The translations under genes and the position numbers were made by a program. Below are positions 1 through 4,686 of a DNA stretch of 10,083 bases, one piece after another. The notes beneath the pieces are model-generated. The model was given only the letters and a program-made list of their open reading frames with translations, did not search any database and was not told the DNA's origin. The stretch's first letter is position 1. Each line of letters starts with the position of its first letter. This stretch comes from Verrucomicrobiota bacterium (GTDB lineage: Bacteria > Verrucomicrobiota > Verrucomicrobiia > Opitutales > Coraliomargaritaceae), in contig JBCCKC010000076.1 of the NCBI GenBank assembly GCA_039045675.1, positions 1-10,083 of the forward strand, written 5' to 3'.

Positions 1-576
1 ACGCTCACCTATCAGCAGCATGAGAACGCATTTACCCAACCCAATGGAAAGGTTGCCGAACAAATGCTCGGATGGGCTCTCGAAAAAACTGAAGATGCGG
101 GTGGCGACCTGCTGGAACTCTACTGCGGCAATGGCAACTTCTCGATCGCACTTGCTCAGAACTTCCGTCAAGTCCTCGCAACCGAACTTTCCAAACAGTC
201 CGTATCCGCAGCCCAGTGGAACATCCGCGAAAACGGAGTCAAAAATCTCAAAGTCGCCCGACTCTCAGCGGAGGAACTCACCGAAGCACTCGAAGGCAAA
301 CGTAAATTCCGTAGACTTGAGCAACAGGACATTGATCTCGCCGAATACAATTTCTCCACCGTCCTGGTGGATCCACCTCGTGCCGGCATTGATGAGGCTG
401 CCCTTGCGAAACTTCAATCGTATCCAAATATTCTATACATTTCCTGTAATCCAGAAACTCTCAAAGCAAACCTCAGAACGCTACACAAAACGCACAGAGT
501 CAGCCATACTGCCCTCTTCGACCAATTTCCCTATACGCACCACCGTGAAATGGGGGTTTTTCTGGAACGTCGATAG
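1..576 (+). CDS. trmA: tRNA (uracil54-C5)-methyltransferase TrmA, C-terminal part (5' end lies outside the window)
   Basis: Frame 1 is open from base 1 to the TAG at 574-576. The translation ([28 protein letters not shown]...[16 protein letters not shown]...VDPPRAGID...[11 protein letters not shown]...[13 protein letters not shown]) carries the SAM-binding motif and the catalytic Cys motif of TrmA/RumA-family m5U methyltransferases. It matches the E. coli TrmA C-terminus almost residue for residue. Confidence 0.85.
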
Positions 577-1748: not shown

Positions 1749-1825
1749 GGCGACCATAGCTTAATAGATAAAGCACCTGGCTGTGAATCGGGGGATCTCG
1801 GGTGCGATTCCCAGTGGTCGTCCCA
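1749..1825 (+). tRNA. tRNA-His (anticodon GTG), non-canonical T-loop
   Basis: Cloverleaf folded by hand. G-1 (1749) pairs with C73, giving an 8-bp acceptor GGCGACCA/TGGTCGTC, which is the histidine tRNA hallmark. The anticodon loop CTGTGAA has U33, GTG at 1783-1785 and A37. CCA is encoded (1823-1825). The T-loop is TGCGATT (G at position 55) and the T-stem is imperfect. Confidence 0.65.
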
Positions 1826-1857
1826 ATTTCGTAAGAAATCCGACTTAGTCAGAAACC

Positions 1858-1883
1858 GCTTATTCGAACTAATACGCGCTTAT
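1858..1883 (+). repeat. Degenerate copy (A-orientation) of the ~30-nt repeat family
   Basis: GAAACCGCTTATTCGAACTAATACGC aligns at about 18 of 28 positions with copy A (GAGACCGCTGATTCTCGCTTATAGACGC at 2291-2318). It sits about 20 nt upstream of the inverted copy B1, so the two could form a hairpin. Confidence 0.35.
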
Positions 1884-1904
1884 CGAACCAGGACTTTCAT
1901 CATT

Positions 1905-1946
1905 AGCGTCAATAAGCGAAGATCAGCGGTCTTCAGCTCCGCTGAA
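1905..1946 (+). repeat. Repeat family copy B1 (B-orientation)
   Basis: GCGTCAATAAGCGAAGATCAGCGGTCTTCAGCTCCGCTGAAC. The 29-nt core matches copy B2 at 23 of 29 positions and is the reverse complement of copy A. There is an internal hairpin CAGCGG/CCGCTG. Confidence 0.55.
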
Positions 1947-1964
1947 CATAAGTCCGCACCCCTT

Positions 1965-2039
1965 GCCTCATAAGTTCAACCAGCAGAACAGCCGGCTTTT
2001 AATCAGCAGGACGTGGTGCGAGTCCACGATGGGGCACCA
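1965..2039 (+). tRNA. tRNA-Lys (anticodon TTT), non-canonical T-loop
   Basis: Acceptor GCCTCAT/ATGGGGC (one G-U pair). D-arm GTTC/GAAC. Anticodon loop CTTTTAA (U33, TTT, A37) on a stem with one C-A mismatch. T-arm CGTGG-TGCGAGT-CCACG (G55). Discriminator A, with CCA encoded at 2037-2039. Confidence 0.6.
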
Positions 2040-2044
2040 ATTCC

Positions 2045-2121
2045 GGCAGAGTAGCTCAATAAGTAAGAGCGCGGGTCTCATACGCCCGAGGTTGTGGGTG
2101 CGATTCCCACCTCTGCAACCA
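2045..2121 (+). tRNA. tRNA-Met (anticodon CAT); has some initiator-like features
   Basis: Acceptor GGCAGAG/CTCTGCA with an unpaired 1-72 position (G-A). Anticodon stem CGGGT/GCCCG with three consecutive G-C pairs, and loop CTCATAC. T-arm GTGGG-TGCGATT-CCCAC (G55). A73 then CCA encoded (2119-2121). The D-loop AATAAGTAA lacks GG. C11-G24 is elongator-like, so the initiator versus elongator assignment is open. Confidence 0.7.
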
Positions 2122-2126
2122 TTTCA

Positions 2127-2197
2127 GCCCGTATCGTCTAGTAGTAGGATATCACGCTTTCCACGCGAGGACGCCGGTGCAAGTCCGGCTACGAGTA
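2127..2197 (+). tRNA. tRNA-Glu(TTC)-like (alternative fold gives Gly-TCC); non-canonical, possibly a pseudogene
   Basis: Acceptor GCCCGTA/TACGAGT (one C-A mismatch, one G-U). The D-arm GTCTAGTAGTAGGAT resembles tRNA-Glu. The anticodon region CTTTCCA/TTTCCAC is ambiguous between TTC and TCC, with position 37 = C in the Glu fold. T-arm GCCGG-TGCAAGT-CCGGC (G55). No CCA. Confidence 0.4.
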
Positions 2198-2203
2198 AGT
2201 TTT

Positions 2204-2274
2204 TGCGGGATAGTGTAAGAGCGGCACGGTGGACTTTGACTCCACTAGTGCAGGTGCAAGTCCTGCTCCCGCAA
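2204..2274 (+). tRNA. tRNA-Gln (anticodon TTG), non-canonical T-loop
   Basis: Acceptor TGCGGGA/TCCCGCA is a perfect 7 bp with U1-A72, as in E. coli tRNA-Gln. Anticodon stem GTGGA/TCCAC is perfect, with loop CTTTGAC (U33, TTG 2236-2238, A37). T-arm GCAGG-TGCAAGT-CCTGC (G55). Discriminator A, no CCA. Confidence 0.6.
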
Positions 2275-2987: not shown

Positions 2988-2989
2988 CG

Positions 2990-3061
2990 ATACTGTTAGC
3001 TCAGAGGTAGAGCAGTTGACTCATAATCAACTAGTCCCGGGTTCAACTCCCGGACAGTAAC
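2990..3061 (+). tRNA. tRNA with anticodon CAT (elongator Met or lysidine-modified Ile2), canonical T-loop
   Basis: Acceptor ATACTGT/ACAGTAA (1-72 is A-A). D-arm GCTC-AGAGGTA-GAGC. Anticodon arm GTTGA-CTCATAA-TCAAC is perfect (CAT at 3023-3025). T-arm CCGGG-TTCAACT-CCCGG. It starts 2 nt after the preceding tRNA. Confidence 0.65.
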
Positions 3062-3143
3062 GATCATGGCGAAATTGGTATACGCACCGGTCTAAGGAAC
3101 CGTTGTCCGCAAGGACGTGTGGGTTCGAATCCCACTGATCATG
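3060..3143 (+). tRNA. Class-II tRNA-Leu; the anticodon reads AAG (A34) in the only consistent fold
   Basis: D-region TG-GCG-AAATTGGTATA-CGC is Leu-like. The long variable arm has a GTCC-GCAA-GGAC hairpin. T-arm GTGGG-TTCGAAT-CCCAC. Anticodon stem CCGGT/ACCG(T) with loop CTAAGGA (U33, AAG 3094-3096, G37). Acceptor ACGATCA/TGATCAT has one mismatch, and the 5' end apparently overlaps the previous tRNA by 2 nt, so the boundaries are uncertain. Confidence 0.5.
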
Positions 3144-3570
3144 GCTCGGCCTGCCCTAAAGGCCTCCTAGCCTGCAAAGCTAGACTAAAACCGCCCAAAG
3201 AGAGATCGGGCGACTCGTGACAGCCTGGCACCGCTTCACCTAATGGGATCGCTGTGCCAGCAGATTCGCCACCTGCGGTATTGCGGATACCGGATTCAGG
3301 AAGAACCGCAAACCAATTGCAAAGATGCGGCTCACCGTCTCGGCCAAAGACCATTCGGCGAGACCTACTCTGAGTTAGAGGCGAGTGCTTCAGACTGCTT
3401 TCTTAAGCCATACCCCGTGGTTCGAATCTGTGGCCAATCGTCTCGTTCCGACTCTCTGAGGGCACCTCTTCTTTTCATAGGAAGCGCAGGTGCGCCACCT
3501 ACGCTTCATCAATCTCGCAGCTTCAATCGTGAGGACTGCATCAACCCAAAACCCATAACGAATAACAACC

Positions 3571-4686
3571 ATGCTATTCTTCAAATACATCAATATCCCG
3601 TATGAGTATGTCGGTTTGAAATTCCGCGATGGTCAATTCGTCGAACTGCTCCACTCCGGGCGTCAATGGATCTACGATCTCTTTGGCCGTACTGTCGTCG
3701 ACATCGTCTGGCAGGGCGAACCATGGATTGAAATTTCCACCGCTCAGCTGAAGCAGCTCCGCGAGAACGAGGCCGTTAACAAACGGGCTGAATTCATTGA
3801 CCTGAAGGACAACCAACGCGCCCTCGTTTGGCTCGATGGTCGTTTCTACGGCATCCTCAAACCGGGCCTCTACGGCTACTGGAAAACTCCAGTCAAAACC
3901 AAGGTCGAAATCGTTGAGCTTGAAGACGTCCGTTTTCAACACGCACATTTCGACATCATGACCAAAGATAAAGACGTCGCCGTCCACCTGAACATCCAAG
4001 ACATCGAAGATGGAAAGGTCGGCGTTCTCTACGTCGACGGTGTATTCACCGAGATCCTTAAGCCAGGTCGCTACGCATTCTGGAAAAACGTGGGCATCGT
4101 CCGCATCTACCAGTATGACCTTCGTGAAAAGGTCCTCGATGTGACCGGCCAGGAAATCATGACTGCGGACAAGGTCACTCTGCGACTCAACGCAGTCCTG
4201 AGCTACCGCCTCAATGACGTCCGAAAGGTCGCCGAATCCGCAAAAGACGTCGAACAGGCGCTCTACCGTGAGATTCAGCTCATCATCCGTGCAGAAGTCG
4301 GAGGTCGCACTCTCGATCAACTGCTATCCGATAAGTCTGCAGTCGCCAACGAGGCACTGAATGCAATCCGCGCTAAAGCCTCCGGCTACGGTGTCGAAGT
4401 CAATGGTCTCGGCATCCGCGATGTCATCCTGCCGGGAGATATGAAGGAATTGCTCAACCAGGTCATCGAAGCCGAAAAAGCAGCCCAGGCGAACAACATC
4501 AAACGTCGAGAAGAAATTGCTGCCATGCGCAGCCAGCTCAACTCCGCGAAGCTGATCGAGCAAAACCCGACTCTGATGCGTCTGCGTGAGCTCGAGTCTG
4601 TCGAAAAGATCACTGAAAAGGCCAACCTGCAAATCTTCGTCGGAGATGGGCAGGAGCTCAGCAAGCGAATCGTCAAACTCATCTAG
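3571..4686 (+). CDS. SPFH/Band-7 (stomatin/prohibitin-like) domain protein with no transmembrane segment and a triplicated N-terminal beta-hairpin motif, 371 aa
   Basis: The C-terminal half (EIMTADKVTLRLNAVLSYRL...GGRTLDQLLSDKSAVANEALNAIRAKASGYGVEVNGLGIRDVILPGDMKE...AEKAAQANNIKRREE) is a typical SPFH domain followed by a coiled coil. The N-terminus carries three repeats of the SPFH-initiating motif (GQFVELLHSGRQW / GRFYGILKPGLYGYWK / GVFTEILKPGRYAFWK). There is no hydrophobic anchor. A strong terminator follows. Confidence 0.85.
   Translation: MLFFKYINIPYEYVGLKFRDGQFVELLHSGRQWIYDLFGRTVVDIVWQGEPWIEISTAQLKQLRENEAVNKRAEFIDLKDNQRALVWLDGRFYGILKPGLYGYWKTPVKTKVEIVELEDVRFQHAHFDIMTKDKDVAVHLNIQDIEDGKVGVLYVDGVFTEILKPGRYAFWKNVGIVRIYQYDLREKVLDVTGQEIMTADKVTLRLNAVLSYRLNDVRKVAESAKDVEQALYREIQLIIRAEVGGRTLDQLLSDKSAVANEALNAIRAKASGYGVEVNGLGIRDVILPGDMKELLNQVIEAEKAAQANNIKRREEIAAMRSQLNSAKLIEQNPTLMRLRELESVEKITEKANLQIFVGDGQELSKRIVKLI

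Follow-up and report, generated by a model that had tools for sequence, protein, structure and literature searches.

The stretch of DNA analyzed here, hereafter called the window, is a whole contig of 10,083 nucleotides (nt) from a metagenome-assembled genome of a Verrucomicrobiota bacterium (JBCCKC010000076.1), and it carries a cluster of five tRNA genes in which the D-loop and the T-loop have changed together. Gene models were obtained with the Rfam tRNA model (RF00005) and with ARAGORN. The Rfam model placed eight tRNA genes across the window, all co-oriented on the + strand within 1.4 kb and at a spacing compatible with co-transcription, and five of these fall in positions 1749-2274. The scores of the five (43.5-59.2 bits) all lie above the gathering score of 29 bits, and judging from their sequences they are genuine tRNA genes, as the initial annotation had claimed when it described five tRNA genes with G55 T-loops. 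The check with tRNA finders gave a divided answer: the Rfam model accepts all five genes, whereas ARAGORN called His, Met and Gln and missed Lys and the Glu-like gene.

The first gene, tRNA-His(GUG) (1749-1825; model match 1750-1822, 47.8 bits), has the G-1:C73 pair and an encoded CCA end, together with a G1.U72 wobble and a C50.A64 mismatch. The next gene, tRNA-Lys(UUU) (1965-2039; match 1965-2036, 46.8 bits), also encodes CCA, and it is probably impaired, with A8 in place of U8 and a C29.A41 mismatch. The tRNA-Met(CAU) gene (2045-2121; match 2045-2118, 59.2 bits) encodes CCA and has an unpaired G1.A72. The Glu-like gene (anticodon UUC; 2127-2197, 43.5 bits) has the anticodon loop CUUUCCA with C37 and the mismatches C3.A70 and A29.C41, and it is likely to be a pseudogene in the source genome. 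Finally, tRNA-Gln(UUG) (2204-2274, 56.6 bits) has perfect stems and no encoded CCA. The earlier description was correct about the G-1:C73 pair and about the CCA encoded by three genes (His, Lys and Met). Its estimate of about one mismatch per gene except Gln is right for the perfect stems of Gln but not for the Glu-like gene, which has two. Similarly, textbook anticodon loops, with 7 nt, U33 and a purine at 37, are found in His, Lys, Met and Gln but not in the Glu-like gene.

In the order His, Lys, Met, Glu-like and Gln, the T-loops read TGCGATT, TGCGAGT, TGCGATT, TGCAAGT and TGCAAGT, and the D-loops read aatAGata, aaccAGca, aataAGtaa, agtAGta and aagAGcg. In other words, U54-G55-C56 in the T-loop and A18-G19 in the D-loop occur in all five genes; within the near-invariant elbow set, G19, U54, C56 and A58 are kept, and A stands at 18 and G at 55 throughout. 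The D-loops had previously been called degenerate, with Gln retaining G18G19. Neither statement holds: the D-loop of Gln is AAGAGCG, where the apparent GG straddles the boundary between loop and stem, and all five genes share a specific, covarying A18 and retain G19:C56. Given the 5.5% background of G55 in related arrays, at least five G55 genes among eight are expected with p of about 2.5e-5.

We compared the cluster with that of two relatives: L198 (GCA_038748895.1), an independent assembly that is about 95% identical to the window and has 11 tRNA genes instead of eight, and L210, a more distant relative with an SPFH protein 79% identical to that of the window, in which the same small cluster is present. 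The G55 states of the window are also found in L198, except that the L198 Glu gene has A55. Sequencing error as the source of G55 is ruled out, because two independent assemblies, L198 and L001, show these states as well. The orthologous His and Gln genes have AG/TGC (D-loop/T-loop) in the window and in L198, and GG/TTC in L210. Between the Gln genes of the window and L210, none of the 21 stem pairs is broken, three having undergone double compensatory changes, and the flip at 18:55 comes in addition. The Lys orthologue of L210 has U8 and an intact anticodon stem, and both stem mismatches of the window's Glu-like gene are proper pairs in the Glu gene of L198. The Met gene of L210 has no anticodon arm. 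Canonical tRNAs share the operon, and His and Gln are canonical in L210, which agrees with the previous proposal of a distinct class of tRNA and not a genome-wide trait. The cluster is missing from L200, a relative at 63% identity in which other genes separate TrmA and the PA-domain gene, and also from L201 and L203, so that its presence among relatives is patchy. A functional link to the TrmA gene of the window (64-576) was rejected, since TrmA is also a chromosomal neighbour in L200, which has no cluster. The PA-domain protein of the window is 50% identical to its homologue in Coraliomargarita parva.

The association between positions 18 and 55 was followed in three samples that were chosen in different ways and together comprise more than 3,000 array tRNAs. 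Sample 1 was obtained by scanning for pairs of TGC T-arms separated by the spacing of tRNAs and includes at least 120 genome stretches and 76 viral (IMG/VR) stretches; the figures given here for G55-rich loci (783 TGC tRNAs, 79 arrays, 89 loci) were drawn from the sample 1 matches listed. According to ARAGORN, 671 of these 783 TGC tRNAs have AG and no GG in the D-loop, and 536 of 548 TTC tRNAs have GG. Sample 2 consists of 80 loci picked via the SPFH protein of the window, and hence is unbiased for the T-loop. Its 542 tRNAs include 482 with TTC/GG, 27 with TGC/AG, two with TGC/GG and none with TTC/AG (Fisher p about 1e-42). In sample 3, made up of viral arrays picked by canonical T-arms (1,220 tRNAs), there are 12 TGC tRNAs, and 11 of the 12 have AG and lack GG. 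In the array of Anabaena PCC 7120, the sole TGC tRNA, Glu-CUC, is also the sole one without GG. Thr(UGU) sits at a fixed position in the arrays linked to SPFH, and there 13 loci have TGC/AG, two TTC/GG and three CTC/GG. As a rule, G55 occurs together with A18 and U55 with G18 in all three samples. We also observed covariation of the second elbow pair, where TTT T-loops (U56) occur with GA D-loops (A19) instead of G19:C56. One example is the Tyr gene of L198 (about 1036-1123) in comparison with its L210 orthologue (about 493-585), and further cases are found in viral loci (L306-L401).

In canonical tRNA, G18 is the base that intercalates, and U55, normally present as pseudouridine-55, occupies position 2 of the T-loop; these two are among the most conserved nucleotides in biology. 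The outer face, G19:C56, is used by RNase P and the ribosome. G55 is not convertible to pseudouridine, so that pseudouridine-55 cannot form in these tRNAs. In the yeast SUP4oc tRNA, single changes at G18 or U55 were never tolerated and abolished function (PMC4117946), which fits the need for a paired change at 18 and 55. The T-loops of riboswitches have the consensus UGNRA (YGNRA), and the adenosine of the partner element almost always intercalates between T-loop positions 4 and 5, facing position 2; tRNA is set apart by U at position 2 (bioRxiv 10.1101/2022.12.26.521914). Given that UGNRA with an intercalating adenosine is found outside tRNA, A18:G55 looks like a compensated elbow rather than decay. 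In such an elbow, A18 would replace G18 as the D-loop base inserting into the T-loop and G55 would replace U55 as its partner, with U54:A58, G19:C56, R57 and G53:C61 unchanged. That is, the generic T-loop solution of other RNAs would be placed in a tRNA, and by this analogy we infer that A18:G55 forms a UGNRA-type elbow. Since U54, C56, R57, A58, G53:C61 and G19 are conserved in the class, the outer G19:C56 face should be intact, and the L-shape and the outer elbow face are probably preserved.

Next, we considered the form of the G55 class as a whole. U8 is present in 92% and U33 in 88% of the G55 tRNAs, position 37 is a purine, and A14, A21, A58 and G53:C61 are conserved. Stems without any mismatch were found in 56% of the G55 tRNAs, compared with 49% of the TTC tRNAs in the same loci, and 70% of the G55 tRNAs encode CCA. 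The class also carries identity marks, namely G3:U70 in 23 of 25 Ala tRNAs and a long variable arm in all 22 Tyr and all six Ser tRNAs. Among Leu-anticodon tRNAs, those without a long variable arm numbered 68/118 in G55 form and 42/62 in canonical form (array loci L002-L197). The G55 arrays are co-oriented, and up to 16 isotypes occur in G55 form in one array. The members that stay canonical in G55-rich arrays are mostly Met, with some Arg and Ser.

The class is present in 61 of the 76 IMG/VR stretches that match the pattern, on contigs of up to 275 kb. A 225-kb IMG/VR contig packs 27 tRNAs into 5.3 kb; G55 tRNAs account for 22 of these, with scores of 45-69 bits. Annotation of the stored flanks of the large IMG/VR contigs with PHROGs gave only HNH, ATPase and unknowns, and no structural genes confirming phage. 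Among the 120 genome matches listed, 56 stretches contain at least two real TGC tRNAs; judging from record titles, about 33 of these 56 belong to Verrucomicrobiota, and the rest mostly to Planctomycetota, Myxococcota, Acidobacteriota and Gemmatimonadota. Another 61 of the 120 matches (Pseudomonas, Streptomyces, Clostridia and others) have no TGC tRNA, and most of them lack any tRNA; these were taken as chance matches, for which the rough expectation was about 33. The genome and IMG/VR scans support the kinship with horizontally spread tRNA arrays and virus-classified contigs that was suggested in the initial annotation.

Overall, G55 tRNAs make up about 1-5% of array tRNAs; the background amounts to about 1% for viral arrays of canonical type and 5.5% for arrays linked to SPFH, with 1/24 in Anabaena and 0/69 in four cultured phages. 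Against this low background, 34 of the 79 arrays with at least eight tRNAs are at least 80% G55, mostly those from Verrucomicrobiota and IMG/VR contigs, and therefore independent flips cannot account for the arrays. When each G55 tRNA was matched to its closest counterpart in another locus, this was a G55 tRNA of identical isotype in 78% of cases. In addition, the median similarity score of G55 tRNAs is 0.38 to G55 tRNAs of other isotypes, compared with 0.31 to canonical tRNAs of their own isotype. In these taxonomically unbalanced samples, such similarities suggest that the G55 pool descends from a common source or has evolved jointly. We rejected G55 as a general trait of phage tRNAs, since it is absent from the 69 tRNAs of RcXuper, XacN1, Myrna and CcrBL9 and stays near 1% in viral arrays with canonical T-arms. 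It was also rejected as a general trait of the tRNA arrays known as L-arrays, since the array on the Anabaena delta plasmid is canonical in 23 of 24 genes.

Downstream of the cluster, also on the + strand, lie the other three genes of the window, which have canonical elbows. The first, a tRNA-like gene read as Asn(GUU) (2913-2988), was detected by both Rfam and ARAGORN and has A33 and two mismatches. The second is a tRNA with a CAU anticodon (2989-3062), which abuts the preceding gene and overlaps the next one. The third is a tRNA-like gene read as Leu(AAG) (3060-3143). These genes had been described as ordinary; this is true of their TTC T-loops and GG D-loops but not of the genes as a whole, which abut or overlap, begin with a gene that has A33, and have anticodon loops that vary among relatives. 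The first gene keeps its stems and has an entirely different anticodon loop in each of the three related genomes (tagttat, attcatt, and an ACT anticodon in L210 at 978-1051; the L198 copy is at 2205-2275). The third lies 428 nt upstream of the gene of an SPFH/Band-7 protein of 371 amino acids (3571-4686, + strand; PF01145), the homologues of which are located directly 3' of co-oriented tRNA arrays. The non-coding region from the last tRNA-like gene to SPFH (3144-3475) is 93% identical to L198 over 333 nt, followed by sharp divergence. The gap before SPFH showed no open reading frame (ORF) conserved across the 80 loci and no Rfam match.

Among the 51 metagenomic loci of this SPFH subfamily (in L210-L289) whose upstream sequence is long enough, 48 have a tRNA 341-867 nt upstream. 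Of the 542 tRNAs in the SPFH-selected loci, 540 are on the SPFH strand, and some arrays have more than 30 tRNAs. Many loci show a recurring array end, consisting of His, an HNH gene, Trp, Thr, three Arg, Cys, a tRNA-like element and SPFH. The SPFH-proximal tRNA-like element lies about 420-470 nt before SPFH, and the same slot is filled in 13 aligned loci. It combines a nearly invariant D-arm, anticodon stem and canonical T-arm with a variable anticodon triplet and a weak acceptor stem. Examples, often missed by ARAGORN, are found in L211 (1143-1205), L218 (1542-1605), L264 (1507-1572), L223 (2689-2761) and L262 (5346-5418). A tRNA associated with Band-7 (called b7a-tRNA), located beside Band-7 and sometimes Rsr, was predicted by Burroughs and Aravind in 2016, as described in a paper citing that work. 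As far as that description goes, the SPFH-proximal element is a candidate for it, and 3060-3143 occupies the candidate b7a-tRNA slot of the window. Judged by sequence and position, the five G55 genes are ordinary array members, and 3060-3143 is the SPFH-associated element. RtcB, part of the predicted Band-7 system, was not found on the 10-kb contig, which may be too short to show it.

We also analyzed the genes that neighbour the arrays. An HNH endonuclease is found near about 30-32 of the 89 G55 loci (at least three G55 tRNAs each) and in 23 of the 80 SPFH-linked arrays; the window has no HNH gene. In 18 of the 89 G55 loci, the array encloses a gene for a TROVE/Ro60-like protein, and a tRNA follows 49-93 nt past the stop of this gene. 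Such arrays include L003, L044, L055, L093, L103, L109, L110, L117 and others, and the next tRNA is often Arg-GCG, Cys-GCA or Asn-GTT. By tblastn, TROVE was detected in 18/89 G55 loci, 0/80 SPFH-selected loci and 3/120 canonical viral loci, and RtcB in 13/89, 3/80 and 2/120, respectively. This enrichment of TROVE and RtcB beside G55 arrays is suggestive only, and the three locus sets differ in taxonomy.

Several other elements are found in the array of the window. A long hairpin of about 39 pairs (1658-1736, + strand) ends 13 nt before G-1 of tRNA-His. In comparison with L198, it shows two double compensatory changes, two one-sided changes from A-U to G-U and no broken pair; no Rfam family matched it. 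A repeat of about 47-52 nt is present in three copies: copy 1 (1901-1944, + strand; about 47 nt), copy 2 in inverted orientation (2272-2323, - strand) and copy 3 (2765-2816, + strand). Through pairing with copy 1, copy 2 encloses Lys-Met-Glu-Gln, and through pairing with copy 3 it encloses a small ORF; the two inverted-repeat pairings, I1 and I2, are 88% and 86% complementary. The ORF bracketed by inverted repeats (2363-2770, + strand) encodes 135 amino acids of the PD-(D/E)XK_3 family (PF13366, E 1.6e-37), and an exact-protein look-up of it gave no match. The 52-nt inverted repeats that flank it, 88% complementary, could form a long precursor stem, like an intervening sequence. The repeat, including copies 1 and 3, the PD-(D/E)XK ORF and the hairpin are all absent from L210 and are later insertions. 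L198 has four copies of the repeat (814-864, 1198-1244, 1564-1615 and 2053-2112), and an Asn-Phe-Tyr block between two direct copies there is missing in the window, which is consistent with loss of the block by recombination between direct copies. The structured leader before the hairpin (1500-1657) is conserved, with 79% identity to L210 over 155 nt and a 21-nt pairing of 1510-1530 with 1642-1662; it matched no Rfam family.

Based on these results, we consider it probable that the five genes are accessory members of a horizontally mobile tRNA array that use an alternative A18:G55 elbow, with His, Met and Gln serving as spare decoders. The cluster of the window is a small, partly eroded array that lies upstream of the SPFH gene typical of such arrays, within a variable region of an Opitutales-like chromosome of marine origin, and the short repeat, the PD-(D/E)XK gene and the palindromic hairpin have since invaded it. 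The intact members His, Met and Gln would be expressed, charged and used as spare decoders, as in the Anabaena array, while Lys and the Glu-like gene would be decaying. By analogy with that array, His, Met and Gln are most likely usable spare tRNAs.

Several points weigh against this interpretation. The Lys and Glu-like genes of the window are defective (A8, C37, stem mismatches), and in L198 the Glu gene has A55 and the anticodon loop of Lys has 6 nt, one base having been lost; given these defects and changes, constraint on the window's cluster is relaxed. GG is found somewhere in the D-loop of about 11% of the TGC tRNAs, and the Rfam scores of the window (43.5-59 bits) are at the low end of the class (45-69 bits in loci L184 and L195). 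A promoter scan of the window found no sigma-70-like promoter. Furthermore, the geometry of the elbow is taken by analogy from other RNAs, and the supernumerary status of the array was judged from a contig of 10,083 nt.

We also considered the possibility that the genes are decaying pseudogenes of a dead cluster, where damage by chance produced G55 and the unusual D-loops. The damage in Lys (A8, C29.A41) and the Glu-like gene (C37, two mismatches) would be explained in this way, as would the A55 of L198 Glu, the lost anticodon-loop base of L198 Lys, the L210 Met gene without an anticodon arm and the rejection of two of the five genes by ARAGORN. However, random decay would not give the same G55 and A18 in five of five genes, nor in hundreds of intact tRNAs elsewhere; Gln keeps 21 of 21 stem pairs, three by compensation, and His keeps G-1:C73 and CCA. 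Therefore, simple decay seems rather unlikely. Another explanation assumes non-proteinogenic tRNAs like staphylococcal tRNA-Gly, which, once charged, would stay off the ribosome and donate their aminoacyl groups to a different pathway. The staphylococcal class is the only described natural precedent of a UGC T-loop (PMC7826273), and we also observed it in Staphylococcus petrasii. However, those tRNAs have UU or CU in place of G18G19 and have lost both contacts, whereas the tRNAs of the window keep G19:C56 and compensate at 18:55. The G55 class also spans every isotype, with up to 16 per array, and the neighbourhood has no Fem-type transferase, so that a role of this type is highly improbable.

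In Burkholderia, one toxin of contact-dependent inhibition cuts tRNAs within the T-loop, 3' of position 54 and 5' of position 55. A phage origin of the cluster as a set of counter-defence tRNAs, which an elbow change would protect from a tRNA-cleaving nuclease, would agree with the presence of the class in 61 of 76 pattern-matching IMG/VR stretches, on contigs of up to 275 kb, and with the 225-kb contig in which 22 of 27 tRNAs are G55. The mark extends over whole arrays, which is what a single discriminating factor would lead one to expect. On the other hand, no nuclease or defence gene is linked to the cluster in the window, the stored flanks of the IMG/VR contigs hold no confirming phage structural genes, and none of the 69 tRNAs of four cultured tRNA-rich phages has G55. 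The countermeasures known for phage tRNAs are changes in the anticodon loop; here, four of the five genes have a canonical one, and we regard this origin as unlikely. Decoys that resist anticodon nucleases, as previously proposed, are likewise unsupported, because the change sits at the elbow. It is also quite improbable that the G55 tRNAs are RNA cofactors of Ro60/Rsr, RtcB or SPFH, like Y RNAs or the predicted b7a-tRNA, and not decoders. TROVE genes do lie within G55 arrays, with a tRNA 49-93 nt past the stop, and both TROVE and RtcB are enriched near these arrays; an SPFH gene lies 3' of the cluster, and the b7a-tRNA, as described by the citing paper, is predicted beside Band-7 and sometimes Rsr. 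However, with its canonical UUC/GG elbow and an anticodon that varies, the SPFH-proximal element is not of G55 type, and G55 tRNAs form near-complete isotype sets with identity elements and CCA. The enrichment may also reflect lineage, given the different taxonomy of the three samples. Known Y RNAs carry pseudouridine-55 (PMC4201824), and the Rfam YrlA score is 20.6 bits against a threshold of 69.

Within the preferred reading, that of mobile array members with an alternative elbow, the arrays that are nearly all G55 may reflect selection by some factor that reads the T-loop. As a tentative and rather doubtful extension, A18:G55 might be a set-wide mark that makes the mobile tRNA complement orthogonal to such a factor, the candidates being TruB, a T-loop-directed tRNase toxin or array-encoded Ro60/RtcB. 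If this speculation is true, the array would be a damage-proof or separately handled back-up translation set, and the mark would explain both the 34 of 79 arrays with at least 80% G55 against a background of 1-5% and the Ro60/RtcB enrichment.

G55 in staphylococcal tRNA-Gly (PMC7826273), tRNA arrays, HNH neighbours and the band-7-associated tRNA were known already. In open-access papers and preprints, we came across no account of a recurrent class, spanning all isotypes, with the paired A18:G55 elbow. A natural class of all isotypes in which 18 and 55 are swapped together offers a ready test of the need for the G18:pseudouridine-55 contact and for TruB, and by analogy it suggests that the tRNA elbow may be able to adopt the T-loop solution of other RNAs. 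The combination of a TGC T-loop and an AG D-loop can serve as a signature for one mobile-array lineage in Verrucomicrobiota, Planctomycetota, Myxococcota and virus-classified contigs, and the links with SPFH, Ro60, RtcB and HNH tie these arrays to predicted RNA-repair systems. Given that two of the five genes escaped ARAGORN, tRNAs of this kind may go under-called in annotation or be labelled as pseudogenes.

Among known systems, phage anti-defence tRNAs differ from the cluster in that they are changed in the anticodon loop, whereas the change in the window is at the elbow and four of the five anticodon loops are canonical. The YrlA Y RNAs beside Ro60/Rsr (PMC4201824) resemble the G55 arrays in that tRNA-like RNAs lie beside TROVE and RtcB. 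However, YrlA retains GG as well as a UUC bearing pseudouridine-55, its order is circularly permuted with respect to that of tRNA, and it lacks any anticodon function. An identity as Y RNA or YrlA was rejected for the window, where the best RF02553 match, 20.6 bits against 69, falls on the downstream tRNAs and no TROVE gene is present. The b7a-tRNA/Band-7 system shares with the window a tRNA-like gene upstream of and co-oriented with SPFH, and this applies to 3060-3143 but not to the five G55 genes. It involves a single gene with a canonical elbow, and the five G55 genes lie upstream of that slot.

The L-arrays (the Anabaena trn operon, Acidithiobacillus and Mycobacterium; PMC8421152, PMC4758250) are similar to the window in that their tRNA genes are co-oriented, dense and patchily distributed; these genes are supernumerary, with an HNH endonuclease in or next to the array. 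By the definition of Tran et al. (PMC4758250), an L-array holds 20 or more tRNA genes, packed at 2 per kb or denser. The window reaches this density but not this number, with eight genes (11 in L198), and it contains no HNH gene. The tRNAs of the Anabaena PCC 7120 operon are aminoacylated in vivo and induced under translational stress; three went undetected and are not named in the text of that paper (PMC8421152). The Anabaena operon (Nostoc sp. PCC 7120 plasmid pCC7120delta, L205) contains exactly one A18:G55 tRNA, Glu-CUC (2507-2584), so that the elbow is canonical in 23 of its 24 genes, unlike in the cluster of the window. Northern and charging results already published for this operon may tell whether a tRNA of this type works. 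The terms T-loop, D-loop, G55, U55, G18 and tertiary do not occur in the main text of either paper (PMC8421152, PMC4758250).

At the level of the elbow itself, the staphylococcal tRNA-Gly (PMC7826273) shares the UGC (or UGU) T-loop, the lack of pseudouridine-55 and the absence of G18G19. It is restricted to Gly(UCC) and has U or C at 18 and 19, whereas the cluster comprises His, Lys, Met, Glu and Gln with A18-G19. The UGNRA T-loops of riboswitches and other RNAs share with the cluster the G at position 2, the U:A pair between positions 1 and 5, the purine at position 4 and the intercalating adenosine of the partner element, and they differ in that they occur in RNAs other than tRNA.

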